Assembly (NCBI GenBank): GCA_036172245.1
Contig: JAYWIR010000080.1
Location: 248,001-312,000, forward strand
DNA: 64,000 nucleotides
Direction: 5' to 3'
From: Raillietiella orientalis
Lineage: Eukaryota
The notes under the pieces are model-generated. The model was not told the DNA's origin and searched no databases. It was given only the letters and a program-made list of their open reading frames with translations. Positions 11,201 to 32,100 of this stretch are shown piece by piece (position 1 is the stretch's first letter; each line of letters begins with the position of its first letter). Position numbers and translations under genes: made by a program.

Positions 11201-14200
11201 TTGTGATCCAATTTCGGTTTGCGTCATAAGCAGATTTTTGTTTTTTTCAAAGAAATTGCAATCTGTATGGCTGGGATGCTGTGAAAATGTGGAGGGAGAT
11301 TTTTCGGTTAACCAATCACGGAACTGCGATCCAAGGCGATTTGGATTGGCTTCCTTTTGTTTTTCTCTTCACTCGACACATTGGTTTCGATTCTGAGGCG
11401 ATCCCGACATGACTTGCTGCGAAATCCGTTCCATCAAATCCATGATTTCGTCCCCTTGTGGAGGAAGAGTTCTTTTTTTTATTTTTATTATTATTTTATT
11501 GGAAGGTCCATGAAAGCAGACAGCGTCCTGCAGCACTGATCTTGGATTCGAACAAGATCTTTTCTCCTCGCCGAAACGGTGATGCGAATAGCAATTTCAA
11601 ACATTTCCAACACGTTCTTCCTTGTCAGCTGCAAAACTGTCCATGTCAGTGGCCATCTTGGAGACTTACGTTGTGTGATTTCAAAAGACAAATCGACAAA
11701 TTGCATTTGGAGGCTGCAAAGGCTGATTGCTTTGAATGTTTCTCTGGCTCACATGCTCAGTATCTTTCCATATGCAATGCCTATGTTTAATTGCGCGGTT
11801 ACGTTTGAGTCGCTTGCATCCTCAAAATCATGATCATCACGGAAGGTTCCATCGGCGAACCTATTCCTGATTCATCCCACAAGGCGATACAGCCCATGCA
11901 GAGCAATAGGGTGGATCCATTCGTATATCGTAGCCATGCCCTTCCCGAACTTTTCGTTTTCACTGGCATGCGTGATCAGAAGGGTTATTATTATTATTAC
12001 TACTTTACTTAAGTGAGACCCAAATGCCACTGCACGATTACATTCTGTATGCTTCCGCCTTGCGATGTGAAATTTTGCGACCTCGATGTTGTTATAGGTA
12101 TCTATGAGAGGTTTATAGTAACAGTCTGTTCGACCGAAAATCCTACATGATTTGAGTTTAGATGTACGTTTTTTCTTTTTGTACTGGCAGGCCAGGGGAT
12201 ATATCGAAACTCACCAATTTACCTACACCTTCGCCCAGCCAGGACTCCGCTCCGCTACCGAGCCTGGCCATCGAGATTTCCGGTGTCCACCGTTACCGAT
12301 CTGTTCTAAACTTGCTTCGTGACGGAATGTCCAAAGCTGAGTGTAAACACCATGTTATCTTATTTTCAGTGAAGAGGAGGAGGAAGAGGAAGAAGAAGAG
12401 TAAGTTCCTTTACACGAAAAAGCAAACACACACACACATACATCGGCGCAATGGTTGCTCTGCTTTCCGTTGCATCTCCATTCGTGTCCTCGCATGCATC
12501 TCCGGCGCGAACAGCGCGAACTCCTCTGACTGGCAGGCAGAGAGTTAGCAGCGCACGTCTTGCAGGTGATCCGCCGCCTCGACTCCGTGGCTCCTTTCTC
12601 AGCTTTCACCCCCTCGAACGTCGAGGACTATTTTGGCAGTAAAGGCGCCGCTTTGTTCCGCGAGGACGGGTTCCGTCCGATGGCGAGAGCTGTCCTTAAA
12701 AAAAAAAATCCCCGCCAGCAAGAGAACGTGCCTGAATCTTTTCGAACGGAGCTCCAAGTGGTCGCTGTTGTCCATTACAGGAAGTGGCCGCCGTGCTCGG
12801 CGACAGCGCGCTTAACGCACTTGCGCTTCCTATCGGAGACGTCGAAAGTCGCTCCTGCGTTGAATCGAAAGCCTGTCCGGGAATGAAGGAATCTGACGGA
12901 AGCTTTCGCTGATGCAGCAGGAGATGCGCAGCCATCGCGAACATGCAGAACATCCGATTCCCTAGGACGCGTAGCCTCCTTCCTCTCCTAATGGAATGGA
13001 ATTGAACGCCTCCGGGCTAACCTCGATTTTTCCGGATTCGAAGAGCCGAAAGCTCTAACCGAGGTCTTTTCTGGGGTGTTATCGGGAAAGGGAAAGGAGC
13101 CAACCAGTCTTAGCAATCGCGAGAGTGCTCCTTGGCACGTCCTGTTCGCTCCCGCTGTCAGAACAGAGCGCCCGTGACGGTGGAGGAGAAAGGACCTTGT
13201 TCGCTCTTCCGCACGTCCGTGACCAAACACATACTCCGTGACAAGAAGTACATGGCGACTCACATCTCTTTTTCATTGCCAACCCACAACGAATGGACGT
13301 GTTTTTGTCACCATGAAGGGAGGAAAAAAAGCCGTAAGTAGTGCAGTTTCTTGGCGTCACAACGGAATGTCTTCTTCGACCTTTCCGAGACCACCGAGCT
13401 TTGCATGGGCCCTTCCGAACTAACCGCAGGAGGATGGCGTGACAAATCACTGAAAAGCCCTTGGCAACGTAGTAGAGCCTCTGTGATGCCCTGCTTGCTC
13501 TAGCGGGGTCGCCATTTCTCACCTTCTAACTCTGAACCTGGTAGCGCATGCGTCCCCCTCCCTACATGGATTGATATCGGCGTTTGCGAACCTCTCAAGC
13601 AAACGACCAAGATCACTCCGCGCAGTCCCCAGGGAAATGCGCAGGGAACCTTTGTGTCTCGAACCAACCAAGTAAACTCATGGATAGCCAATCAGCCGTT
13701 CATCTAAAACGACCATTCTTGTATTCCGCTATAGAAAGCATGAAGAAGAAAAAAAGGATGGCGGCGCTCCTGATTTCCTCAAGGTAATGTCGTGATTCTG
13801 GTAAAGATGCCGCTGGTTGGCGGCAGGGTAAAGACAGCGAATGGTGTCCTAATGCACGCCGGTGTTTTCAGCAGCGGGCGGAGGCGAAGCGAGCCGACAT
13901 CGACGAGCAGATCAAGGAGTACGTCGAGGAGTGGAGGAAGCAGAGAGTCAAAGAAATGGAGGAGCTGAAAAGACTGAAGGAGAGGCAGATCAAGAGAAAG
14001 GTACGCTCGTCGTTCCAGCGTCGATGGGAGCTCCTGGCTCCTCCACCCCTTTTGCTTCTTGATTCCCTGACTTACCGGCGGCGGGCCCCGACTCCGTCTT
14101 GAGCGCTCCCTCTACTCCGCAAGAGCGAAGTTCTGCGGTGAGGGCATAGCTAGGCGGTCAGGTCTGACCCGTTGCTCCCCTTCCGGTGCGGAGAAGCCGC

Positions 14201-17200
14201 ATCCCTGCTACTTCGAGGAACTAAGGGATCCGGAGCCGGGAAAGTTGACGCTGATGGAAGTCAAGGAGAGGAGGAGATTTCGTGCTACACTTGCCTTCCG
14301 ACGAAGAGCATGGCGACGCGTTCCGTCCGATTGAGAGAGCTGCTTAAAAAAAATCCCCGCCAGCAAGCAAATGTACCTGTATCTTTTCGAACGGAACTCC
14401 GAGATGTCGCCACTATTCAATTCCTGTAGTGGATAGCAGCGACCACCCGAGAAGATGGAGGGAAAGACGACCTTTGACTTCCTCTGGTTGAGCCACCCGA
14501 GAAGATGTAAGAAAGGAGGAACTGCAACCGAAGATACGAAGCGGATGCAGGGGTAGTAGCGAATGTCATCCTCCAGCTGTCTCATTGTCCAAACTGAGGG
14601 AAACTGAAAAGGGGGCAAGAATGGAGCATCTCCTCTCAAACTGAAGTTTCACCCCGCAGGTGGCGGTCTCGTCGCCGTAGAAGCATGTTGCTCTGCAGTA
14701 CCAAAAGAACGTCATCCTCGATGACGAAGATGACAAAAGAAAAAAAAGGCACAAGACGACAGAGGAAGGTGCTGCATTCTTCGTGGAGCCTGGGAGTGGA
14801 GGATTCCGATGAAAGTTTCCGTCTAGCAGTCCTCCTGTCATCTGTAGCTTCTGGACAAGCCAGGAAGACCGCGCACTAACTCCGCGAGTTCCTCGCCGGA
14901 CGAAGTTGCGCTCCTGCTGGGAAACGCGTTCCTCTTCACCCCGACTGAACTTTCCCGGAGAAGTGGTCATACTTAAGGAGGGTTCCATCTCGGTTCGCAT
15001 TTGGAAGGGCTTACGGAACCTTCCTCGCGATTCTAAGGTCCTTCTGAAGATGAACTTTCTTGCCATCCCCGTGAACGAGGACGCTCGTTTCCGGAACGGA
15101 ATTGGGATTCGCCCCAGCCAGGGAACTGGAAACTACGAAAGAGAGAGACCCTGAGCTTCCCTCCTTTCGTAGGTCCGAGAGGGCTACCCTTGGGATTGGG
15201 TTCAGAGCAGAGAGCCGGGAGGGGGAGAGTAGCTGGAATGGACACACTGAAATTTGGAACGAGGGGAGCCACCGTTGGGAAATGGGGAGATTCGAACGCT
15301 CCCCGGAGCTGGGCACTCGAAGCGCGATGACCTCTTTTAATCATTCGTGTGTACGTGTCGTGCGTCGACTGCTGCCAGTAAGGCGGGTTCTACGGGGGAT
15401 CCCTGCTCACAGCTTTCCCACGAGGTGACCACCGCCCTCCCACCCAGTCGGACGGCGATTTGGAAGCCAATAGCTTTGAGAAAAGTTTCGGTTTCGGGCA
15501 ACGGTGCGGGAGCACTGGCAAGTTTCGCCTCAGGGGAAGTCGTCTCCCGACTCACGGAAGCTCCGCTGCGGCAACGGGAACCCCTGGGGACTGAGCGTCT
15601 GCGAAGGGGAAGATTTCATGGGGAAGCTTCCAGTTCGCAAACGGGGGAAAGGCTTTCTGATCCGATGCCATTTGACCTAGGTGACCCAAGACGGAAAAGT
15701 CTGTGAGAGAACCGGAAAGCGAGTGCGAGGACCCAATGTTCTTGAAGAAGAAGAAAAAAAATAGGGAGGGAGTTTCTCCTTGCGAATCTTCTTGGAAACT
15801 AGGAGACCGGGTGGGCTGGTCGAAGTGGCCACGAAAACTCTCTCCATTGACCAATCCAGAAACAGATCCTCTCTGCTTTCCCTCTCTCTTTTCGTGTCCT
15901 TCCGCTTAAGGTGTTCTCTCTTTCACAGGCCCAGCGAGCGGAAGAAGAGAAGAAGCTGGAGGAGATGAAAAGGAAGGAGGAGTTGAGGAGGCAGAAGGAG
16001 ATGGAAGAGAAGAAGCAGAGGGAGGCGGAAGAGAAGAAGAAGCGCCTAGAGGAGATCGAGAAGAAAAGGCAGGCCATGTTCCAGACCAAGGAAAGCCAGA
16101 ACTTCCGACCTAACTACAAAATCGAGAAGAGAGACTCCTCTGGAAACATCGCTCCCAGCACGTTCGCGGCCGACGACCCGAGGGCCGAATTCATGAAGAG
16201 CAAGGAACAGCTGGAGGAGGACAAGAAGATCGCTTTGCAGTTCCGGATCAAGCCGCTCAACATCGACAGCCTCGGGCTGCCGCAGCTGAAGGCCAAGGCG
16301 CAGGAGCTGTGGACCATGATCGTGAAACTGGAGACCGAGAAGTACGACCTGGAGGAGAGGCAGAAAAGGCAGGACTACGATGTGAGTAGCGATCCCTCGC
16401 TCCCGCCTCCATGCTTCCGCCTCCTCTTCAGCTCAAGGAGTTGCACGAGCGCCAGAAGCAGCAGCTGAGGCTCAAGGCCATCAGGCTGGGACTGGAGCCG
16501 GAGTAAGTACGACCCGCGCGGAGACTCGCAAAGCGACGGCTGCCCTGGGTGTTCCACCACCAGGCACGTGGCGGTAGCACCCCAGGGCATCCGTTCCAGG
16601 GATGCCCTTCCTAACCGTCCGATTTTTGTTGTTCCAGGGCGCTGACAGGGAAGCATCCAGTAAGTCGAGTTTCCCGTGGGGATTTTCCTTCAGGGACTCA
16701 CCTCTATTCCTGACATTTAGCCCAAGGTCAAAGTCGCGAGCAAGCACGAGAGGAGGGTGGATTCCAGGACCTTCACCGACAAAAAGGACCTGTTCATGGG
16801 AGTAAGTTTCCTGCGGGAGGGACACCTAGGGGCGGCAGAGGAGACGGGAACCGGGAGCACGCTCGAGCGTCGCCCGATCGGCTCGAAAGTTTTCTTGGGA
16901 CCGGCTGCCGAAGCACGGATGGGGCCTGCGGTCGATGATTGGCTTTCCTGCAAACAGGACCTGAAATTCGTGGAGAGATCCACGGGAGATATCGCGTGGT
17001 GGTCGCGAGGGCTCTCTTGCTCCAACGCAAACATGCCATCGTCCAAGAAGTGCGAACGCCACTCGTTACAGAGGGAACATCGAAGGGGGAAAATCATGGC
17101 CGCCGCCTCAGGGGAGTGAAGGCAGCTTGGGAGTGTCCGATCCGCGAGAGGAAATCAGGCACACGGCTGAAGGCAGCCTCATGGAAGAGGAAAGACACAG

Positions 17201-20200
17201 CGGAAGACCCCCAGAACGCTCTGGGAGCATGAAAAGATGGGGATGCGGGAAACAACGAGGATTCCCGATCGGTTCCCCAGTGATGCGACGTTCTGTTCGC
17301 TTTCGATGGCTGGACCGTGCCGGTTGGCTCCGAGTACAATCCGAGAGATCGATCAAAGATTCCTCTTCGCCAAGCCTCCTATCCCTCAACCTAATCCTTC
17401 CCGTCTCTCCGAAGAGGATAGTCTCCCCTGATGGCCCGTGCTTTGAAGTCGCCACAAGGAAGACATGGAGAAGAGTCCATGCCCCCGTGGGTCGTCCAAG
17501 ACCCAAAGCAGCCCCCGAGAAGCCTTGTGGTTCCATAACCACGGAGGCGCTCTCCAATGCAAAACATCGTATCAGGCGCTGGTATCCAATCCACTCCAAT
17601 CCAACATGAAGTCCTCACACCTACCACAAATTTCATGAAAGCACTTGGATGGGTCCCCACCCCCTCCCCGCAAGTCGCCTCTCTTTCTCGTCTGCCTTTC
17701 TTACTCTTCCCTCGAAACCTCTTGCCAGTATCCAGCTCCCAACTTTTTTGCCGTGCCGGCGACGAACTCAGCACCCTGTTCCCTCCCACATAAAAGTCAA
17801 CAGACTCCGTGCAGCTGGGGCCATGGAAACGATCTTCCCTTTAAAACGGAAAGAACAAACAAACAAACAAAAAACACGTGAAGAGGAACTCTGGATCACG
17901 CAACTCTTCGTTCCGAGAGCGTCGCCAACCGACCACCACCCGACCGGTCACCGAACATGCAGCATGGAACTGTCGAAAACCGCCCACCGTCAGCAATATC
18001 AAGCGATCTTAGCAGCAGTGTCGTCTACCGGCTCTTGTTCGAGCTGCAGCTGCTGCATCCAAGGCAGTTTTTGGTTTTCTTTCGTTGTTGCCCGTTTCAC
18101 AAATCGAAACGTTCACGTATGTCTTTGCGTCTTTGGCCCCCGCAGAATCACGGTTCCCTGGGAAGATGGCTGCCCTCTTCAGATGCGAAAACCCTTAGAG
18201 GTCCTTCCCCTCCGTGAGGACGAAAATCTACGCCACAATCTACGCCTACAAAGAAAAAGATGTATGACCTTGGTCAGCTAGGTCACTTGCAGTCTGTTCG
18301 AAAGCGAGTGTTCGTTCGGCATCTGCGGTCCAGGTGTGTCGGTTCTGGCGTCCATCGATGACAACGGAATCGCCACTTGTCCACCACTGGAGCTCTGGAG
18401 AAAATCTGTGACACCGGACTGCACTGAAAAAGCCTCGAAGCCCGGGAATGAAAAATTTCCAAGGTTATCTGATCGATAAGTTCCTCAAGATCTGAAAAAA
18501 AGTCTTCCTTCAAAAAAGAAAACTCGCTAATCCGAGAACTGGAACCAAGTCAACTGGTATCAAAGAGACATCGGAAAAAAAAGAAGGAAAAGGCGCATGG
18601 TTGCAACATGAAATTAGGATCTGTGACAGCCAGGTTTAAGTCCAGATCCACAAATCCGTTGTGTCCTCCAGCAAACCGCTCGGAGCTGCGTCTTGTCCTG
18701 ACTGCTTCCTCAAAACTCTTCTCCAGATATTTCTTAAGTTCTTTCATCCGACCGTCTTTCGCTAAATGCACTCTCAATTCTTTTTCTTTTTCCCGGCTCG
18801 TTCGGGATGCGAGCAAAAAAAAAAACGCTTTCCTTCTCGACTAACACAGTGATTCCCAACACGGCAAAGAAACTATCAGTCGGGAGTCAGCTGTTAGCAG
18901 GGCTGACGGGTTGGTGAAAACGGAGATGCTTGTACTTGGATGTCTTTGCAAGCGACACACCCAGAGGTGGCAAATAAGATCCAGACGTCCACTCGTTGTA
19001 TTCTCTTTGCGAACGATAGGACTGCCTGGCTTCCTCAGTTTCAGGAAAACAGCATACAGATACCCGCACAGAATACATGCGATCGCGTCATTAGAAGGCA
19101 CATGAAATGTTACGATTCCAGAGAGCTGGAGGTTACTTGTTGCTGGGATATGGGGAGAGAGGCCCCTAAACAGTTGTGGGGCAAGAACATCAGCATAATT
19201 CCACGAGTGAAGGTTTTGTAGAAATTCTTGTGTATTCGAGCATCCCACGAATGTACAAATAGGAAGGTATTCTTTCAGTAGCGCCTTGCATTTTCAATCG
19301 AACGACAGCCAGCCATGTGGCTTGTACACAACCCTTGATCCCATTACGATAGAGCTTGAAACGCACTCTTCTTGAAGAAACTCTAATATCGAGACGGACA
19401 GTCTCCATGCTACTTTTGCACAGAGCAGTCTTCTGATGTTTTCCTCTTGGCAAGCTTCCTTTTGCCTTTCCGGAATCTGAATTCTTAGTCCAGCAACCTG
19501 TACTTTTTTCGGTATCTAGTTTGTGTTTACGGAGACCACATTCCACCGCAGTGTGCTACATTAAAGAGGATTGCATCTTGATAAACTCCATCTGAAATGG
19601 AACCTCTCCCAAACTGATTATGCTTGTTTCCTAGTACACATTTAAATCTCCAGGATACCCTGGAGGCTCCCTGTCCGATAAAACATGAGACCATTATCGC
19701 TTTTGCACGTTAATCTACCAGATTGGATACAGACTGACGTAGGGCTGTAATCAAAAAGCATGATCTGAAACTGCTAATAATCTCAAATTCGAAATTTCGA
19801 TTAAATCATTAACCATTTGAACTGCAGTCCCTCACAAGAACCGATGTTCCGATGCAGCTCTCTCATTAAAATTCCCGTTCCATGCATGATATGAATGATA
19901 ACCAATTTGTCACTTTCCTCAATGATCAGAACTTTCTCCATGAAACCACACAACGCAATTCTGAAAACGATGCGTTTCTCGTTTTCGACTGCTTCCATTA
20001 GATACTTTTCAGCTTGCGTTTACCATAAATCACACACGATCTGTCTTTAGAAGTTGAAATATTACTGCATAACATTTACTAATATCGAATTTCTCAGACG
20101 CACTGTCATTCCACAAGTAGGCTTTGTCTAATTTTTTTTTTAAATATCAAATGCTAAGAGCATCTATTGGGTGCACGGGTATATGAAACTTAAGTGATTT

Positions 20201-21815
20201 GCCTTATACAGCACTTCAGACTGACAACATAAATGCCTGTATAGTAGTACTAAAATAAAGTCAATCAGTAAGAAGGCTCCCGATTGCAATAAGTGCCTGA
20301 GAGTAAACAAATTCCAGTCTCTTTTGACTTATCAGATTGATAAGGCACTAAAAAAAGCAAAACCTCTCGTCTCAATAAGAGCAGTGAAAGAGATAAAGAT
20401 AAAATACATTTTGCATACGAAAAGCGACTGTCAACTGAGAGAAAAAAAAAATCATGCTTCAGGATGAAACAAAACAATCTTTCGAAGAGACGCTTGTTTA
20501 AATGTTATCAAAATCACAGAATGGCTGAACACTAAAGAATGCTAAACATATAAATGAATTAATCAAAAAAAAAATTTATGAAAGGCAGAAAAGTTTCTGT
20601 GTGTTTCAACATATGAAAACTGAATTCATAATTTTACAGAGTTCATGGGTCATATAAAGCATGTGCACACTTGATACACTTGGTGTACTTAAAACGAATG
20701 AATGGATAAGATTGCAGTGATGTCCCATACCATATAAAACTAAGTTGTAAGGATTTTAAACATTCGTGTAGAACAGGATTGACTTGAATTATAAAAGAAG
20801 TATGCATCTAGTTCTTTGGCTCCACTGAGGAGCAAAAAAAATTGATAATCAACCAATTCTTTTTCAGTTGATAAACTATATACCCATATTTACGAGTGTT
20901 TTGTTTTAATAAGAACTAGAAACAAGCCTTTTTTTCTTTTCTTTTTTTAAATTAAGTAAACCCAAGCAGGAAACGCATTTCTTAGAAAACAGTGAGGAGG
21001 TTTTAGGAATATTCTAAAACTATCTGAAAATACACTTCCAGTTGAATGAAACGTATACCGAAAAAAGGTTTTCCAACATGTATGAGAGTTTTTAATCGAT
21101 AAACATTACAAAGAATGCCTGTGAAATACAAAGCTTGAAACTCAAAAAAAAAAAAGTAAAGCAATTTATCGTTTATAGATAGAAAAAGACATAAGCCGCA
21201 TCCTTTCACTTCAGAAATGAAAACCTTTGGTGATATCCGAGTACCAAAAACTGAATTAAACAATTTACATACCTATGTACTTAAAATCAACTTTGAAAAA
21301 CTTTCATCTGTACCGTATTTTAACTTATTGGCTATTTCTCTGAAATATGCTTTCCATAGGGCTTGGAAAACCAGGACAAAGAAACAATGGAAAATGCCTG
21401 GAAAGAAAAAATGACCCAGTTTGATCAACGATCAAAAGGTAATTAACACAATTGGTGTGAGTATTATACGTACCATACTCATAGTATGCATGTCTCATTC
21501 TTAGAAACTGGAGGTTTCTTTAGTCACTCTGAAAAACTAATTGAAACACAAGTATTATAGTACAAATCGATTTGAAATGCACTTAAAAATTCTCTACATT
21601 TAGGAAGGTTACCCAAGTGGTTTGGAGAACGCCCAGGTAAAAAACAGGATGAACCAGATACACCCGAAAATGAAGAAGAAAAGGGACAGGAATTGGATTT
21701 GGATTCCTTGAAACCCTTAAATTTCGAAGATGAAGACAAACATGAGGAGGAAGAGGAAGAGGAGGAAGAACCGGAAGAGGAGGAAGAGGAGGAGGAAGAA
21801 GAGGAGGACGACTGA
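8296..21815 (+). CDS. TnT: Troponin T (arthropod type, C-terminal poly-Glu tail), 383 aa
   Basis: Exons: 8296-8321 (MSEDDEVYS), 12370-12399, 13735-13783 (KHEEEKKDGGAPDFLK), 13872-14000 (IDEQIKEYVEEWRKQR), 15929-16381 (KLETEKYDLEERQKRQDYD), 16432-16502, 16638-16659 (ALTGKHP), 16721-16801 (PKVKVASKHERRVDSRTF), 21360-21438 and 21604-21815 (LPKWFGERPGKK...poly-E, TGA). All introns are GT-AG with consistent phases; total 1152 nt. Confidence 0.95.
12370..12399 (+). CDS. TnT: 30-nt poly-Glu micro-exon of troponin T (symmetric phase 2, skippable)
   Basis: tattttcag|T GAA GAG GAG GAG GAA GAG GAA GAA GAA GA|gtaagt. It fits the phase-2 ends of the flanking exons. Confidence 0.8.
12670..12787 (+). repeat. 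~110-bp interspersed repeat, copy 1 (TnT intron)
   Basis: gttccgtccga...gagagctg...ttaaaaa..aatccccgccagcaag...atcttttcgaacgga.ctcc is shared with 14320-14432. Confidence 0.85.
14320..14432 (+). repeat. ~110-bp interspersed repeat, copy 2 (TnT intron)
   Basis: Diverged direct copy of 12670-12787. Confidence 0.85.
18300..19560 (-). mobile_element. Degraded LINE (RTE-like) remnants in the long TnT intron
   Basis: KEDFFSDLEELIDQI resembles the RTE endonuclease KxxFYxxL motif. FKLYRNGIKGCVQA resembles the RT FxxxxGVxQGCVLA motif. Fragmentary. Confidence 0.25.
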
Positions 21816-22186
21816 AGTATTTCATTGATAAATGGAAAGGTATGCAAGCACAGTCTCGAGATTTATTCATTTTTATACATTTCCTACAAGATATGCGCCT
21901 TCCCACTGCGTGCATTTTTTCCAATTGTTGTGTGTGCTGCTAAGTAAATGTGTTTGATGAAAGCTTCTACTGCACGCACTTCATGCCAAATCCCATTCTT
22001 AACCATTGCTGCTGTAGAATAGATCCGCACAAATGTAGTGCCATCTCCAAATAAAATTGTGTATGCATATGTATGTTTGCATATCTGGGAACACCAGAAC
22101 AACTCTTGAATGAGTACTTTCCAGACAGCTGATTGTACAGGGAATGCACCAATATACAAAAATAGTGTTAAATCTTTTATCACATC

Positions 22187-22266: not shown

Positions 22267-23456
22267 TCAACTGAGCTTAAAATCGGGCTCCCATGGGGGG
22301 GATGGGAGTCGAGAATTGGCGGCCAGATGCTCCGAGTACTGTTGATAAGTACGACCATGCAAAAAACACACGATGGTGACAGTCATATTATCACAGCCTA
22401 TTCCTGCCATGTGGGATTCAGGAGAAAGGCAGTGATCAATCAGGGCTTCAGAGATCACCCCTGGTTCTTTTTGGTTTATAATGCCTTCACGAATAAAATC
22501 AACAACTTCCTGGAAAACACTTGTTTTCTCAACACTCAGAACGAAAATATCTACCTGACTGGAAAGCACATCCCAAATACCATCACAAGCTAGAACACAA
22601 AACTCCCATTTAGGAGTAAGCTCATGTACTGTGACATCAGGTAGTGCTAAGGATTCACATTCACTTATGTCTTCATAAAGACATCCTACCTGTGATCACC
22701 TGTTTCTCAGGCTCCTTTGCATCATTTTTTTTAAACATAAAATCACCAAATGCACGTGAAAGTGCTAAGGTACCATTCACCCGATTGAATTCAATCCATC
22801 CTCCTGCCTCTTGGATACGCTTGGCTTCTTCCTCATTATTAGGCTTGTGATCATTGGATAGATTTTTGGCTACTCCACCAATAGATGCAACACAGCGAGA
22901 ATCTCCTACATTTGCCTGAAATCAATCTTCTGAGCATCCCCTTATTTTATAATGCACTTACACAATACAGTTTGTTATTTCTAACAAGTAAGCAACATGC
23001 AGTAGAACCAGAGGTATCATCTTTCAAATCAGCATTGGTTAATAAAGACTGGTCAAAATCCATAAACCCCTGAATACCATCATCTAAAATTTATATCAAA
23101 TGCATCTACCTCCTACTTGCATGAGAGCCTCTTCAATATTTCCTTCTTGATACTCGGGTCGTTTCATTATAAATTTATGTAAGTTTTTCCCAGCATGCTC
23201 TGCTACTGCAACTCCTGGAAATGAGTTTAAGGGGTAGCTAAAATTTTAAACTCATTTGGCTTCCTATACCTCCATGACCATCATAAACCCCAAAGAAGGC
23301 TGAGAAAGGATCATTTGGAAGGGATAAAATGGTGGTGTGAGCATCTTCCATATTAATTCTCCACCCCTGCATGCATGAAGATCCAACCCGTACAAATTCA
23401 TTCTGACAGGTTTCTGTGTCTTTGGTAGTGACAGGTTCTGAAAGTGTCTGACCCAT
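22267..23456 (-). CDS. Protein phosphatase 2C (PPM family, MGQTLSEP type; T23F11.1/CG17746-like), 317 aa
   Basis: Exons: 23456-23270 (MGQTLSEP..SCMQGWRINMEDAH..YDGHG), 23214-23117, 23069-22962 (SGSTAC), 22915-22690 (ANVGDSR..DHKP..RVNGTLALSRAFGDF), 22646-22555 (LACDGIWDV) and 22509-22267 (GCDNMT, TGA). Introns are 55, 47, 46, 43 and 45 nt; total 954 nt. The PP2C metal-binding Asp motifs are present. Confidence 0.95.
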
Positions 23457-23632
23457 CAGTGGTATGGCAGGCACAGTGCTGCCCACATGAGTTGGGATGG
23501 TGCTTGTACAACCTACAAGATACATATTTACACAATGAAGAAACAAGCAGTCCTTTATAAAGACCACCCCTCCCTCCCTCCAGAAACATATATTTCTTGA
23601 CTCTCCAAAACGCCAACAGTGAAGCACCATAT

Positions 23633-26600
23633 TCAGTAGCGATATTTTGTGGAATAATCTTTGGGAGACACAACCAAACCTCGCCCTTTTCTTGCACCCC
23701 GATATACTGTTTCGATTATATCCACCATTTCTTGCTTATCTTCCAATGCCCAATTGATCTTGTTGTTGTTCCCTGTCCCCAAATCTATCATGATGTGTTT
23801 ATTTCGGAAGAAAAACATGACTGTGCATGGATCATACAATTCATACCTAAAGGCACGCATAATAGATTGTAAACATTGCTTTGGTACATTTACATTTTGT
23901 TGAAATCAGGAACTTCTGAAATATCCACCAAATAAATGACAGAAAAATTCTTGACTTTTTCTGCAATGCTAAAGAGTACTTCATCCATTTTCATACATGT
24001 TGGGTCCCAATCATGTCCAAATCTGATGACCTGAAAAGAAAATTCCATGAAGGGCGACCATTAGTTAGACTTTGTTGTATTCACAACTATGTATGGGATG
24101 TCATAAAAATACACCTTACCTTGAAAGCAACTTTCATTGCTTTTAATAGAGACATTAGGTTCAAGTTACATGAAGAAGAAAAAAGATTCATCAGGTAGTT
24201 AATTTGAAAATAAAAGATAGGAGATCTAAACAGAAAACTTAAAGTGCATGATGGGCAACAATTGTTACCGAATTTTAGCATCATATTTAATCAAGAAATA
24301 AATGAGACAAATAGCAAACAACCTCATGAATAACTAGACAGTATTACATTAAATATCCAGAACAAGGAAAAACTGCTTCAATTTGTGTACAGTTATCAAT
24401 TTTTACTGCACAGAAATTTTGCAAAGGGTTTTAATACCAAGAGTTCAGCCTTTAAAACTTTGTAACACACTGTACCATCTGTAACTAAAATTTACAGGGA
24501 GAAAGGCTCAGGTGTTTCTACAAACACTATTTTAATTTGCATCTGCATGATTTTTCTTACCATATCCCATTCAATGGGAATGGCAGGAAAGCTATCTCAT
24601 ACCAGTCGATAATCTTATTTTTAGTATTCCACAGTTTTCTTGATCTAATATGTTTAAAAACGCAATTACATTAGAACCCTCTTCTGATTCGATGCTATCC
24701 ACATCTGCAATATTTAGATTTTTGTTAGCAAGCAATTCTCACACATTTCTTCCTTGGGGATCCAAGGAAGAAATCTTCCATTTCTTCCTTCAACTGCTGT
24801 TACTAAATAAATTATACTGGATTCAACAAAGAAAATGATGAGATGTGCACAGAAAATTACAAGACATTCTAAAGGACGAACACTTATGTGTTAAAAACAT
24901 TAATAAAATAGTTTGTCCACAGTTAAGGAAGTGGTATAGAAAAAAAATGCAACACGGACTGTTACCATTGTCTGCCTGTATCTATTTGAACGAATCTTCA
25001 AGTTGAAATGCAGATAAGATGTATAGGAACTACTGTGTATAAACAACAAAAACAAAAACACTCATCATCATATCTGTGCAAAAGAGTTCAACAACAATAA
25101 ATCCACAAAAACAGACGAAAATCTTGAAAAACAGTTAACCCTAAATCAATTGTGAAGCATATAAACTGCAAAGTAGAAGATCAAACAAATACATTGCACA
25201 TATATGTATACATTGCACATTTTGTGTTCTAGCTTGCATGTATACATTGCATGACAATGTAAAATATGATTGCAAACCATGCAAATGAATGACTTATGTA
25301 TGAGATACATTACAATTTCTAAATATCATACAAAAGCCATGAATTTTGATGAATAAATAATTGCAAACCATCATAAACATACTAAAGCATTATCTCAATA
25401 CGAAATCAATTCCTTTAGATAGTAGGCAATAAAAACAATTCAACAGTAAGAGATGGTCCACATAATTACAGCTGTGCAAAACTCAATCTCAAAAGTTGAT
25501 TCATATAGTTACTCAAATTATCAGTCATTTTTCATGTATGCAAGAAAAAAAAATTACAAACAAACAAGATTCTGTGAAAGATGCATTTTCAGTATGGAAA
25601 TAAGTTCCCATTACATTACCAACTACAACAAATTTCTAAGAACGACGTGGGCAAGCAAACGTTTCTTTTCAAACCTATCAAGATGCAAAGATTCTAGCAT
25701 AAAAGGGAACAAACTGCTCCCATCTTTACTTCCAGAACCGAAAAATCTTATAAATCCAAAAAAATCATGTACTTTGGGCAATCATATGTCAAAAACTGTG
25801 TTGGAAAAAATATACCATGTGTGGATATATACTTGTATGTACATGCATACATGGTGTATATTAATATTCTTTGCCGAACATGGTATATACAATATGTACA
25901 ATAAACTATGCAGCAATCTCATATGACTACACTCCTTACTTTCAAATGGAAGTTGAAAGGATTTTTGCTTGGATTGACAGGAATAGAAGGTTATCAAAGG
26001 AATATGATTCGCTTACAACATGTATAATGCACAATATGGCCTGCACACACTTTTATCTTTACCTCTGATCTTAGTATTTTTGATTTCTACTGCTCGAGAT
26101 CTGTGGGTAAACAACAACAAAAACAAAAACACTCATCATCATATCTGTGCAGAAAAGCTCAAAAAACAAAAAATCCACAAAAACATAAGAAAATCTTGAA
26201 AAACAGTTACATTCATTTAAACAGCAAAGAAAGAACAATTTTCAATACAGTATTTCAACTGTCTTAATTCCTAATGTCTAAGAAAGAAGAAAAAAACTGA
26301 TAAGAAATAAGCAAATTGCCATTAACAATTAACACAGATGTAAAATACATTATTCAACTATCATAAAAAGACTGCTACTCTTAAGTGATTTACAAATGTG
26401 TAACTGAAAAGTCATAGATAAAAGACAAGCTGACTTTTTATGGCATATAAAAAAGAAAAAGAAAAACAAGTCAGTAGATGAATGAAAATGAAAATCACCA
26501 GGTTATGATACAAAGTGCTGATGAATACCCGATTTACAGTTTTAAAGGGCAGTTTTATTAGTCACATAGAATTTGTTAAGTATATTTGATTTCATAAACT

Positions 26601-27510
26601 AAATTTCAAGATGCAAGTAGTTTCAATTTGGCATAAAACCATGGAGACCTTAATCTTCAATTGATACTTTAGTAAAGCAACACAGAGATCACTGTGCACA
26701 TTTGGCCAAAACATATCATACCGGAATGAATTTTTAATGAAATGGCAACATGAAAGAGCAGTGCTTTTTATTTTTGCAGTGCTTATTTCACAAATGAAAG
26801 AGCAGTGCTTATCAGTTTTTGTGAATGACCCCAAACTCCATTTTTACACAAAAATCATGTAAAGAATTAAATCATGTGTGAAGAATTAATTATACATAAA
26901 TACTTTAATTCAGAGAGCACTTACTTCCTGAGAAAGTTTCCCAGCTTAAAAACAGTTATCAGATAAAAAATACTTTCATAACAACCATTTCACAGTCTGC
27001 AATAAATGCATTTATTTTTTGTTAAAAATTGATATCACATAAATTTGAGATAATTAATAAGAATTCTAAAACAATACAATACTTAGCAATTCTAAACAAT
27101 CAATACTTAGCATCCATTACGTTAAATTACAAACTGCATGAGAATTCATTCAAAATAAATGAACATTCCAATAATCAGTTAAAACAGTCTTTTTCTTACA
27201 TTTATAAGCACATATTAAATATAAAAAATACACTAATTAATATTGGTAACATCAACATCAAAACAAAGTGTTCACCAAATCTATGATTATATTAACTTTG
27301 GAATCAAGAATAATCGAAATCTATTCATATACCCATGTATGTAATGTTATGCATACATACACACATGCACACACTGGTGTGAAAACAATGAAAATTCGAT
27401 TCGCACCACAAATTAAGTACCCTTCTACTAACCACTACTCTGTCCTCTTCACTTAGAATTGCCTGGTCAACCTGCCAACCATTATGCAAATGTTGTAACA
27501 TATAACTCAT
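23633..27510 (-). CDS. TXNL4A: DIM1 / thioredoxin-like U5 snRNP 15-kDa protein, 142 aa
   Basis: Exons: 27510-27433 (MSYMLQHLHNGWQVDQAILSEEDRVV), 24030-23894 (VIRFGHDWDPTCMKMDE...) and 23846-23633 (YELYDPCTVMFFFRNKH...SPKDYSTKYRY*). Total 429 nt; nearly identical to the canonical DIM1 sequence. Confidence 0.97.
24745..24774. repeat. Perfect 13-bp-stem hairpin in DIM1 intron 1
   Basis: atttcttccttgg-ggat-ccaaggaagaaat, with a third arm copy (atttcttcctt) at 24780-24790. Confidence 0.8.
25033..25137. repeat. ~105-bp duplicated segment in DIM1 intron 1, copy A
   Basis: ctgtg..aaacaacaaaaacaaaaacactcatcatcatatctgtgca...atccacaaaaaca...aaaatcttgaaaaacagtta is shared with 26101-26209. Confidence 0.9.
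25944..26021 (+). mobile_element. Short fragment of a bacterial IS5-family transposase (Wolbachia ISWpi1-like C-terminus)
   Basis: 25952-26020 translates VERIFAWIDRNRRLSKEYDSLTT, preceded by a TGG (W) one base out of frame. This matches the IS5 motif RWxVERxFAWxxxxRRLxKxY. The Wolbachia assignment is from memory of the sequence, not a search. Confidence 0.75.
26101..26209. repeat. ~105-bp duplicated segment in DIM1 intron 1, copy B
   Basis: Direct copy of 25033-25137. Confidence 0.9.
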
Positions 27511-28199
27511 TTTGACAAATTATTTTTTTAAGGTTACTCAGTTGCCAACAGTGAATCTAAAAATAAAACAATTCAATCTTTCATAAAAATAGTCAGGATA
27601 ATAAAAGTCTCAAAAACACATAAATAAAAACTACTTTGAATCCTGGTAATCAATTACTTTATCATTAAGTGCAATGCTCTCAGCCCGCTAAGGGATGAAG
27701 GGTACTAAATGTCAAAATAAACACACTGGATTGCAAGCTTTCTTGGATCGCACTACTATAACATAATAAAGTATATTGGAAATTATATGGACTTCATTGC
27801 ACACTACTTAAAGGAAACCGCTATTTTTAAACTGATGAGTTACAGTAACAGTTGTACAACACTGAGGGTCTCTTCATGGGATTGTTCCTTTTTGTGTGTG
27901 ATTTTTTTTTCGTTAGTCTACGTTATTGCTCATACACGTAAGAGTAGCATTTTAACACAATTTAATATTAATGGATACAAAAGAATGAAGAGCACTTAAA
28001 CAACAAAAACTACCCCACATGTGAAGAATTTAATAGACTACTAATTACAGCAAAACCGGAAAATTCAGTCAACACAAATACTTCTTTTTGTACTTTATTT
28101 TTAAGGCTGATTGTAAGCATCAAGACTTTAGCTGATAGCGATTCAAATGTATTTGGAACATCTTCAAATGCCAGGTAATATTCAAAATATATGGAATAT

Positions 28200-29120
28200 T
28201 CAAAGTACATAATTCGGCTTCGTAAATGACTTTTCGTTTATAAATACGATCGGATTATTTGAGTTTACGGACGTCATATTGTACGATTTTTAAAAATCAA
28301 ATCGATGTGCCATGAAGCGCATTTCAATGATTTTTTTTTTTTTTTTTGCCTGGTGCTTTCTGAAGAACTTAAATTTATGCCGAGATGTTTTCAATCCTCT
28401 CCTACTTTAAATACAAAACTGAACACTTGAGTACTGAGAATATAAAGGCTTCATGCGGAAAACACACATTTTCAGGACGGTAGGAAATTCCGTGTACGGG
28501 TCGTTCGATACACTTATTCAGATATAATAACGAGCCCGCCGGATTCCAGTAAACCGGTGATTACTGATATTGGTGATGAATTAATTCACAATCGGAGTGT
28601 TGTCGTCACTTTCAAGAAACTCGGAGAAACCCAACCCCGCTTGTTAGGATTTCGGCTTCATTTGGAGTTCCTCGAAAAGTGTGGCATTTCACACGAAAAT
28701 CCCATACTTTCGGAAACCAATTCAAATTCAAACGGGGAAACAGATGCAACATTCTGTGCCGGAAAAGCAACACCTTATACACTGGTGCGAATACATTGCA
28801 TTGTGTACGTGCATGCAAAAACTTACATTTATGGACAGAAACGTAAATAGGGGTTGGAAGCTCAGAAGGTCGGGTGAAATGTGGACCGCGGTAAAACAGA
28901 ATTGGCACTTCAATACTTTTTATTTGTCGGTGCAATCGGATGAAAAGCTTTGATCTCGTTTGGAATAATTTTTGCAGCACCAGCAGTCATGAGTAATTAA
29001 TCGCAGTCAGCAAACTGGAGTTAATTACTACCTTCTCGCTATTTATTCTCGCCCGATTAGATTTTACTTCATCGGATTGCCATTACCCTGAAATGAAAAT
29101 GACACCGTAATTGGATCCCA
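28200..29120 (-). promoter_or_regulatory. Probable promoter / non-coding leader region for DIM1 (and possibly PP2C)
   Basis: CpGs reappear abruptly here after the CpG-poor gene bodies. The DIM1 ATG exon starts at an acceptor (ttttatttttag, exon start 27556). There is a candidate minus-strand donor gtaagt at ~28821-28826. Inference only. Confidence 0.35.
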
Positions 29121-32100
29121 CGTATAAAGAAAATGCCCTACCTTGATTCATGGGTAATATACAGGTATTTCAAAATGTTAAAAAAAAAAAACTGATGCAT
29201 TTTGAATATGCATGCAGTTTCAAACGGTCTTTTGTATCTGAGAAAGTACCAGAGGAAACATGTCAATCATTACCTATGAATGCAACTGTATGATTTTGGA
29301 AAATTGAGCAATAAAAATGCTCATTTGAAAACCATGAATAATCTTTGAAAAAGCGACGCCAATAAATTTCCCATTCCTTGGTAAGCTATTCTCCATTTAG
29401 GCTTTCATACTACGTCCAAGTTTTTAAGTGATAGCTCGATCATATGCTACAATTTAATTGATTATTTTCAAAGTGGAATTTCTTTTACTCCGGATGCGAA
29501 AGAAGTCTTTCCGTTTTCATCAAGTGTTCTGAGCAGTGTTTAACGTAGTAAAACGATGAATACTGCTGAAACTGGTTGCTGTGTAGTCCATGAGGGAAAA
29601 TTCGAAGCAGCCACAAAAACAGCCAGTCATGGAACAGAGGTCATATAAGGCGAAACAAGAGATAAAATGAATAGTCTTGGTCATAATAAACCCAATGCAA
29701 TTTTAAACTCCAGAAAACAGAAATTTAAATGAACTGTGATTTTTTTTTTTGTTGTTGCATACTTGCCCGTTCCCTTAACCTTCTTTTTGCACATATGACT
29801 ATGCATATTGACTCTTAATTAAATTGGTTTGAGTTTTCTTACATTTTATTTTATTTTTTTGCACGTCGAATGTTTCCCGAATTTGTCTCTAATTGAACAA
29901 ACAACTATTTGTTTTCATCCAGTAGTTAGTATAATTTTTTGATTCACTTCCTCTTTTATTTTTTCATTTCCCTGAGGAAAGTGTCTTCATCGAAATTATC
30001 CACCATTTGGAGCTTCAGTTACGATTATAAGTGAACTCTCATTAGTTGCTTGAATCCTAATGAAAATTTTAATGTCATCATATCATTCATAATGTCTGGA
30101 TCATATACACATACATGTTTCCAAGATCACACATACAGGGTATGAATGACATGTACACCTTATGTGCGCATACTGTAGATACTGGACACCGAATTTTTAG
30201 AGTATTTCACTGATTCCATACATTGAATGTCCAAAGGGAGATCGGTGAGGACTGCTCGTAGACTCGCATGTTGTTGAATATAATCTGTAAGGATGTGAAG
30301 ATATACATAACGTAATTTCATAGCAGACAAGCAAGAAATTAAAAGTTTCAGCATATGCACAGCAAACGCTTGACAGTATTTTATATTATTTATTAAGGTA
30401 GCTCCTCTCCAGTAGGGCTTCAATAAAGAGCAGCAAACAGAGCCCAGGCGAAGAAGCATGATGGATAAATTCATTTGGAGGAAGTTCTAGGCGCCAAAAA
30501 GTTAGCAGCTCGACAAGCTATTCCAAAAGCAGGCCAGCAATTCTGATGGATGAAGGACAGAGTAGAAAACAATACTGAACGGTTTAACACAATGATAAAG
30601 AGCAGCAAACACATCAGCGCTGCTTGAAGTGTTTCGGAACTTTATACCAATCAAGAAGCGGAACATAAGATTATTATAGAACATAGGAGACCCTGGATTT
30701 AAAAGTATGAGGGCACAATGGATACAACAATTTTTCATAGGAAATAAACTGAAGCAAGAGCATGCTTGCATGCGACATCTGCAGAGACGGAGAGAGAAAG
30801 AAGAAGCAGTTCCGGAGAAGAAAATCACGGATGACAACACACAGATTCCCCAATTCTGTCCGTTCGTGGCAGTCGGAGGGGAAATATTCGCGGTTGCGGA
30901 AGCTCTGCATTTAAGTTTGACCGAGTACCGGTAAAATAGTTCAGCGGTCTTGGGCGCCTGTGCTCGCTCATTTTCGTCTGAAAGGAAGAATCACAAGCAA
31001 TAAGTACCCGATACAGTGAAATGTCATGGGATAAGCCAGCGGTTCGATCTACAAGTCGAGGAAAGCACTCGAACAACTTTGCTACATTTGCAGTGCGCAG
31101 CCTCATACTTCTCAAGCACCACTCAGACGCCAGGAGAACTGAAGTTCAAGTGTTGCAATATCCATCACAGTTGTCACCATGCGTCCCGTTTGCTCTCATG
31201 AAGGATGAGTTGAGAGGTAAATGCTATCCAGGCTGTGAAGCAGTAAAAAAAGAAAAAAAAGAGAAGCAGTTCAAGGCTTGCCGAATTTTGCACGCATGAA
31301 GATGTTGGCGGAAAAACCGACCGAGTGACACCTGAAAGTTTTCTATAACATTAGAAACTGAAAACTTCGATCTCTGCTACAAAACTGCAGTCTTTGCAGC
31401 TTGAATACCACGTTCAAGAATAAATTAAAATCTCTGAGTCAATTCAGGTTAAGTAGTCGGGAATGTTTTGCAAAGAATTGCGAACTCCAATAACTGTAAA
31501 AACCCAAACACTTCAATGGTTTATTGCAATCTGGACAACCTTGCAAGCATCCTGGAGACGCAGAAAGCAAACGGTCGAGAATGACGGTTCCTGAGTATGA
31601 AAAAGGCATAAAATGAAAAAGGGAGAGCGCAAAATGGAAAAATCCAGAGATGAAAAAGCATCGGAAACGTTGGGAGGTTTGTAAGAAGAAGTGCACTGAC
31701 GTTACATCTGGCATTTCTTCCAAATGTGTGTGTCTACCTGGAACCAGAATATGCATAATGTAACCGTGGTTACAGACTTGATGTATTGGAAGCACCATTA
31801 TGGGAAGCATCTATTTTCTTGGACAGACTGAGTTTTGTGTTTATTATCAGAACAGCCTGATGACAGAAGTTGCTCTGAAAGCAATTTCGATTGTTCCAAG
31901 TCATGCCAATCACATAGGTTACTTTTACTGAACACTGCCATCATCACCTTAACTTCATGAGGTTGTAACCGTTTTTTGGTTTCTACCTGAAGTTTCCTAG
32001 AATCCAGGTTTCAAAGCTGCAATTCCCGTTTCGACTCAACTGAGTTGTTCCGAGGCACATATTTGCGAGTTGGTGAAGCAGTTCTACTTTGGCCATTGCT

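Follow-up and report, generated by a model that had tools for sequence, protein, structure and literature searches.

How does a gene obtain its 5′ end when its start codon lies 176 nucleotides (nt) behind the stop codon of another gene? The question is raised by a 64,000-nt stretch of the genome of the tongue worm Raillietiella orientalis (GenBank assembly GCA_036172245.1, contig JAYWIR010000080.1, positions 248,001 to 312,000), here called the window and numbered from its first letter. On its minus strand a gene for the spliceosomal protein DIM1 is followed head to tail by a gene for a phosphatase of the PP2C family. The original prediction, made from the letters of the window, held that the two form one transcription unit, with a dicistronic mRNA, a leader exon shared by both genes, or a precursor resolved by spliced-leader (SL) trans-splicing. 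Judged from the CpG pattern, the weak local donors and an acceptor that appears to be ancestral, the 5′ end of PP2C most likely arises by splicing, at position 23512, of a transcript started upstream of DIM1. That the unit is resolved by SL-type trans-splicing is the explanation we tentatively favor, at a little under an even chance.

The DIM1 and PP2C genes and the gap between them

Gene models rest on translation of minus-strand exons and Pfam domain searches, and features below lie on the minus strand unless a plus sign is given. DIM1, of the TXNL4A type, has three coding exons: 27433..27510, recognized by translation, 23894..24030 (Pfam DIM1, E 1.4e-18) and 23633..23846 (Pfam DIM1, E 1.8e-32), the last closing with a stop codon that ends at 23633. 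Their translation gives 142 amino acids, full length and free of internal stops. PP2C (22267..23456) has six exons encoding 317 amino acids, with the PP2C motifs in order, the metal-binding motifs present, a Pfam PP2C match and introns of 43-55 nt. It is expressed and spliced as modelled: public RNA contigs of 95-99% identity skip four of its five introns. The RNA data came from two public runs, as contigs only, with a depth of 2-5 and covering shares of 0.10 and 0.07 of the window; none of the contigs from these low-depth runs spans the DIM1-PP2C gap or the leader region. One contig of 169 nt aligns at 23344-23509 and would reach 23512 with three extra letters; contigs cannot mark a start, and it was not counted. 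Two RNA records that match DIM1 are less than 90% alike and belong to other organisms.

The intact gene models confirm that 176 nt (23457..23632) separate the DIM1 stop from the PP2C ATG at 23456 on the same strand. As had been said of it, the gap lacks AATAAA, and ATTAAA is likewise absent; the polyadenylation (poly(A)) signal variants present are AATATA (23589..23594), a weak candidate signal for the DIM1 3′ end, and TATAAA (23554..23559), which may be a poly(A) variant or a TATA box and lies inside a predicted hairpin loop. The CpG poverty noted earlier is also borne out, with one CpG where 8.5 are expected (observed/expected ratio, o/e, 0.12). The locally unpaired 3′ splice acceptor tatcttgtag (23513..23522) stands where it had been placed, with its exon start at 23512, 120 nt past the DIM1 stop. 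It had been called clean; its strength is ordinary, with a pyrimidine fraction of 0.58 compared to 0.42-0.75 in seven coding introns. These seven introns calibrate the scale used throughout, which consists of pairing to the organism's own U1 and pyrimidine fraction. Donors within the gap reach at most 4.5 U1 pairs, compared to 5-7.5 for the coding introns. From the acceptor to the ATG there would be a 56-nt 5′ untranslated region (UTR) at 23457..23512, including a 10-codon upstream open reading frame (ORF) at 23488-23456 whose stop codon overlaps the PP2C ATG. The first canonical poly(A) signal past the DIM1 stop is the AATAAA of PP2C itself (21862..21867).

The PP2C reading frame is open across the entire gap, which occurred in 556 of 20000 shuffles (2.8%); any one of the three frames was open in 8.5%. 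An ATG 2 nt past the DIM1 stop (23630-23457) is in frame with PP2C and would give 58 additional residues. A frameshift or fusion from DIM1 to PP2C was considered and rejected; inspection by eye found no canonical slippery site. A long hairpin is predicted at 23516..23599, reaching to just before the acceptor AG (-29 kcal/mol, z -4.19, 0 of 200 shuffles). If formed, it would enclose AATATA and TATAAA as well as the pyrimidine tract and could weaken DIM1 3′ end formation. As a general feature of such junctions it was not seen in seven others (z -1.41 to +0.90).

Probable promoter and leader exon

The ATG exon of DIM1 also opens at an acceptor, as the original prediction had it. This acceptor, with exon start 27556, is strong (pyrimidine fraction 0.83), and the 5′ UTR part of the exon occupies 27511..27556. 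A cis leader explains this exon, because a CpG island containing the best donor of the region lies upstream. The CpG-rich block at 28200..29150 holds 47 CpG against 36.4 expected (o/e 1.29) and is a probable shared promoter and leader exon. The leader donor expected near 28.8 kb is present within it as GTAAGT (28821..28826), matching U1 at 7 of 9 positions, the best match among all GT from 29500 to 27600; if used, it would end the leader exon at 28827. Near the DIM1 start the CpG o/e is 0.31, and the first DIM1 intron (24031..27432, 3402 nt) is CpG-poor (o/e 0.30) and holds no promoter-like island.

CpG content over the 400 nt before the start was used as a promoter proxy, with 13 stand-alone proteasome genes as controls. 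All 13 controls have an o/e of 0.48-1.0. PP2C lies below them at 0.36, as does the gap at 0.12; housekeeping gene bodies in this genome are CpG-poor. The claim that PP2C lacks its own promoter thus finds indirect support, by way of this proxy.

The large DIM1 intron has features of its own. A U-rich segment of about 110 nt occurs twice (25030-25140 and 26100-26210), an acceptor-like AG closing each copy; no copies beyond these two were found in the genome, and there was no Rfam match. There are also two micro-exon candidates, of 20 nt (26944-26925) and 38 nt (26100-26063), with good splice signals. Jointly they would hold the frame open from exon 1, and they are possibly a poison or alternative exon set.

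Recurrence at other gene pairs

The layout is not peculiar to DIM1 and PP2C and is part of a recurring architecture. A similar tight head-to-tail arrangement was read at ten other junctions of the genome, making a set of 11. Eight of the ten (VHL-RUVBL1, UTP23-NAXD, Ku-CHRAC1, CHRAC1-third gene, PGAP1-STRAP, UBOX5-TEX261, RPP30-APC10 and SLC35C1-QARS1) were chosen with the acceptor already known, and two were found blind: EB1-PSMB2 and NUBPL-QTRT1, the latter an extra pair met in a flank during the survey described below. Pfam backs most of the gene identities; UBOX5, RPP30, SLC35C1 and the EF1-delta-like third gene are unconfirmed labels, and the Ku-CHRAC1 acceptor position and the upstream stop codons at the junctions were placed by eye. 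All 11 junctions are depleted of CpG, with 0-4 in the 200 nt before the acceptor where 5.4-8.3 are expected. Ku, the CHRAC1-like gene and the third gene form a three-gene run, in which use of a leader in cis would skip a whole multi-exon gene.

It had been suggested that such a unit would couple a spliceosome subunit to a phosphatase. This finds no support, because the partners at the other tight junctions are unrelated housekeeping genes and DIM1 was not seen beside PP2C in the other organisms sampled. It was not beside any of 108 PP2C-type loci from elsewhere. For 49 of these the upstream sequence extended over 500 nt or more, and none is known to belong to a close relative; likewise no DIM1 was found in at least 116 metagenome loci retrieved with the PP2C N-terminus. 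We take this PP2C to be of the MGQTLS type, and not the acidic-domain PPM1G tied to spliceosomes.

In PSMB2, a single gene behind EB1 (L155:5500-5760), no usable start codon precedes the first coding acceptor; seven of seven control genes differ from it in this. A distant or trans donor could explain the missing start, as could a one-base assembly error. A start supplied by a leader ending in ATG was considered and not counted, because a single-base assembly error would explain it equally.

A G-rich element before the acceptor

In the DIM1-PP2C gap, 66 nt ahead of the acceptor, is a G-rich element (23564..23581) with 10 G in 12 nt, the strongest copy among the junctions read; 13 of 14 nt of its G tract are identical to a stretch in the same place downstream of CHRAC1. 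The rule used to score such elements asks for 7 or more G in a stretch of 12 nt, at -90..-40 from an acceptor, and was tuned on the first seven junctions. It is matched at seven of the 11 junctions, DIM1-PP2C included, some 60-80 nt before the acceptor, an enrichment over the background, in which 33 of 1291 acceptor-like sites from comparable DNA match, and 23 of 339 exon-like ones. Among controls, none of the 13 stand-alone promoters and none of the 7 coding acceptors match it, and 2 of 30 ordinary 3′ ends do. The first acceptors of DIM1 and EB1 do not match; before 27556 the maximum is 4 G per 12 nt. Placement of the element tracks the acceptor rather than the poly(A) signal. At three junctions the element falls inside the last codons of the upstream gene.

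A second signal occurs at some of the same junctions. A(A/T)TAAA stands 20-23 nt before the acceptor at four of the 11, compared to 40 of 1291 background sites, and these four include both pre-set junctions that fail the G rule. Most other junctions have no canonical poly(A) signal nearby.

If DIM1 and PP2C are resolved by a spliced leader, events might run as follows. Transcription would start at the CpG island at about 28.2-29.15 kb, a single promoter presumably covering both genes, and the leader exon would be spliced in cis to DIM1, 28826 to 27556. The DIM1 mRNA would end within the gap, at the weak poly(A) signal there. The G element, about 66 nt before the acceptor, may hold or mark the downstream RNA, which would then receive a capped leader at 23512 from a hypothetical small RNA.

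Two further sites, downstream of two Sm/LSM genes (L212:6270-6560 and L201:7490-7620), have a G-rich stretch followed by an acceptor and no evident protein gene. They are possibly spliced non-coding RNAs.

Searches for a spliced-leader RNA

Six narrow pattern and profile searches of the genome gave no candidate SL RNA gene. Rfam SL1 and SL2 had no match in the genome, a blank that is uninformative, and no Rfam family was found within the window. A pattern of donor and Sm site gave 122 matches compared to 69 in the control; the 100 matches listed include no multi-copy small-RNA family. A promoter-like motif taken from three U5 genes recovered no loci apart from those of the U5 genes themselves (4 of 11 matches), and in combination with donor and Sm site it gave 13 matches compared to 37 in the control. 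The neighborhoods of four 5S genes held no SL candidate, and the U1 and U2 matches yielded no usable promoter.

These searches brought out some features of the small RNA genes themselves. The motif common to the three U5 genes (L219, L220 and L222) is 14 nt long, lies about 57 nt upstream of each and is a candidate small nuclear RNA promoter element. At L329, 5S rRNA genes alternate in orientation at a spacing of about 1.7-2 kb, and a diverged copy lies between them. The top U2 matches (L120-L149) lack the first ~35 bases. Among the U1 matches, several show an exchanged 5′ end or resemble one another in the DNA downstream; these irregularities are consistent with an association with retrotransposons.

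Weighing the explanations

Several results weigh against resolution of the unit by a spliced leader, beginning with the empty-handed search for an SL RNA gene. In a blind survey of 52 housekeeping genes (14 proteasome, 18 LSM and 20 Ras-family loci, the last being 20 of 68 Ras entries), one had a tight same-strand upstream neighbor, namely PSMB2 behind EB1. The counts exclude L169 and L217, which are weak family matches in CpG-rich DNA. The screen, a crude codon score, was insensitive and overlooked CHRAC1 elsewhere, so that 1 of 52 is a lower bound, and several first exons were outside the sequence examined. This rate is far below nematode or chaetognath operon levels. It is nearer to Drosophila, where 2.5% of genes are given as having polycistronic transcripts and 130 genes as having a promoter and 5′ non-coding exons in common (PMC4528330), than to chaetognaths, whose operons are given as holding 18% of genes (PMC12460157). 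Eight of the ten other junctions, moreover, had been pre-selected for their acceptors.

The G element is also less constant than its enrichment suggests. Of four junctions read after the rule was fixed, three had been registered beforehand as tests; two of the four match, and one of the three registered (P 0.07-0.19). Both blind pairs fail, with 6 and 2 G. The exact G 11-mer followed by an acceptor shows no genome-wide enrichment (201 compared to 169 in the control), and none of 19 hand-picked matches lies between genes, so that it fails as a genome-wide marker; the two sites behind Sm/LSM genes combine element and acceptor with no evident gene following. Finally, in the PP2C family of other animals an acceptor shortly before the ATG is found in 19 of 27 genomic records compared to 3 of 14 spliced records, by which comparison it appears to be ancestral in the family, and a strong donor exists in cis at 28826.

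Some of these points sustain the alternative that survives best, which we nevertheless think unlikely: a shared promoter with a 5′ non-coding exon used in cis. The leader ending at 28827 would splice either to 27556 or over DIM1 to 23512, and DIM1 would sit within an ancestral 5′ UTR intron of PP2C. The weak poly(A) signal, together with the hairpin, would permit read-through, and the G element would be a splicing enhancer. The locus has the layout of such a pair, with a leader donor at 28826 and acceptors at 27556 and 23512 before each ATG, and the strong donor lies in the only CpG island. The ancestral 5′ UTR acceptor, the failure of narrow searches to turn up an SL RNA, the 130 Drosophila genes mentioned above and the Drosophila-like frequency in the blind sample all agree with it. 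Against this, splicing in cis requires that entire multi-intron genes be skipped at many loci, and in the Ku trio two times over, and it does not require a G element at a fixed distance or the collision of poly(A) signal and acceptor, though it is compatible with both.

A third possibility, a small, CpG-poor promoter belonging to PP2C alone and lying in the gap or the last exon of DIM1, or else a short first exon there, is improbable. Such a promoter might consist of the G box and the TATAAA at 23559, with a start at about 23529, and the TATAAA is indeed followed 30 nt downstream by a pyrimidine-purine step; the gap has one CpG where about 7 would be expected at promoter rates, and the G element is absent from the 13 stand-alone promoters. 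A short first exon might end at the donor GGG/GTGGTC, leaving a 55-nt intron, which is a normal length, and GTGG donors of 5.5-6 U1 pairs stand 63-76 nt before the acceptor at three other junctions. The donor in the gap, however, is weaker than all seven coding donors, and the Ku, UTP23 and PGAP1 junctions have no such G-rich GT donor.

Least probable is a dicistronic mRNA that stays intact as far as the AATAAA at 21867 and from which PP2C would be translated through re-initiation or internal entry: it leaves the acceptor and the G element unexplained, and the 58-residue extension from the in-frame ATG would bury the conserved MGQTLS start, presumably a myristoylation-type N-terminus. The absence of a canonical poly(A) signal between the genes, the small size of DIM1 as an upstream ORF, the frame open from that ATG to PP2C (set against the greater chance that some frame is open) and the 159 dicistronic pairs described in Drosophila (PMC4528330) speak for it.

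Neighboring gene and other observations

A troponin T gene (13788-21815, +) with a poly-glutamate tail is convergent on PP2C. Its AATAAA at 22050 (+) and that of PP2C at 21867 (-) imply an antisense overlap of the 3′ UTRs of about 200 nt. Its identity to insect and chelicerate proteins is alike, at about 50-60%. Elsewhere in the genome there are two separate SmE-like genes (L212 and L213) with near-identical translations. Two Ras-family genes (L301 and L302) have a GTPase domain without introns in a genome rich in short introns and are possible retrogenes. COI gave 54 matches over many contigs, which are numerous nuclear copies of mitochondrial DNA. One COI copy comes nearest to Armillifer (77 and 76%), a pentastomid of the Oligostraca, and to Linguatula (75%), insects following at 71-74%; by this small margin the genome reads as probably pentastomid.

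Comparison with known systems

A search of the literature outside subscription journals found nothing on the DIM1-PP2C pair, on pentastomid operons or on pentastomid leaders. What is new here is the lineage, the CpG controls and the candidate positional G element. DIM1-PP2C and the similar pairs could be the first arthropod operons. The wider proposal is that tongue worms have operons throughout the genome, which would be a first for arthropods: a hypothetical spliced leader would cap downstream housekeeping genes, and the G element, 60-80 nt before the acceptor, would replace the U-rich element of nematodes. We regard this as doubtful on balance. If the units are indeed resolved by a leader, operons would have arisen independently once more among animals, this time in a parasitic crustacean and with a cis element of another kind, and pentastomid gene models would have to be re-annotated. 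Should the leader instead be shared in cis, the pairs would be a further example of a class known from Drosophila, a more modest result.

The closest likeness is to the SL2-type operons of nematodes, as described for Caenorhabditis elegans and Trichinella (PMC7668243). There, too, unrelated housekeeping genes stand head to tail with spacing on the scale of 100 nt, and an unpaired acceptor, a probable one in the tongue worm, is preceded at a fixed distance by a cis element, the Ur element about 50 nt upstream of the site of trans-splicing. The candidate element in the tongue worm is G-rich, whereas the nematode Ur motif is U-rich, TAYYTT. The tongue worm also differs in the lack of an SL1 or SL2 match, in a much lower sampled frequency and in that its trans-splicing is putative. 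In the operons of Ciona and the SL1-type operons of C. elegans, which are described as having no intercistronic DNA (PMC1488885), the 3′ end coincides with the acceptor, and four of our 11 junctions, with a poly(A) signal about 20 nt before the acceptor, resemble this; DIM1-PP2C itself differs, with a 120-nt stretch from stop to acceptor and no canonical signal.

Among arthropods, the Drosophila pairs of the Ip259/RpS27A type (PMC4528330) have, like DIM1-PP2C on the present reading, a single promoter, a leader donor and two ATG exons led by acceptors on one strand. In the tongue worm there are, in contrast, three-gene runs, large upstream genes and a candidate positional G element, and the leader junction is a predicted one. 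Copepods and amphipods, in which SL trans-splicing has been described (PMC4664967; PMC5111886), provide a crustacean precedent for spliced leaders, although the tongue worm belongs to a different superclass; according to a 2021 methods paper, operons had not been reported in either group (PMC7986045).

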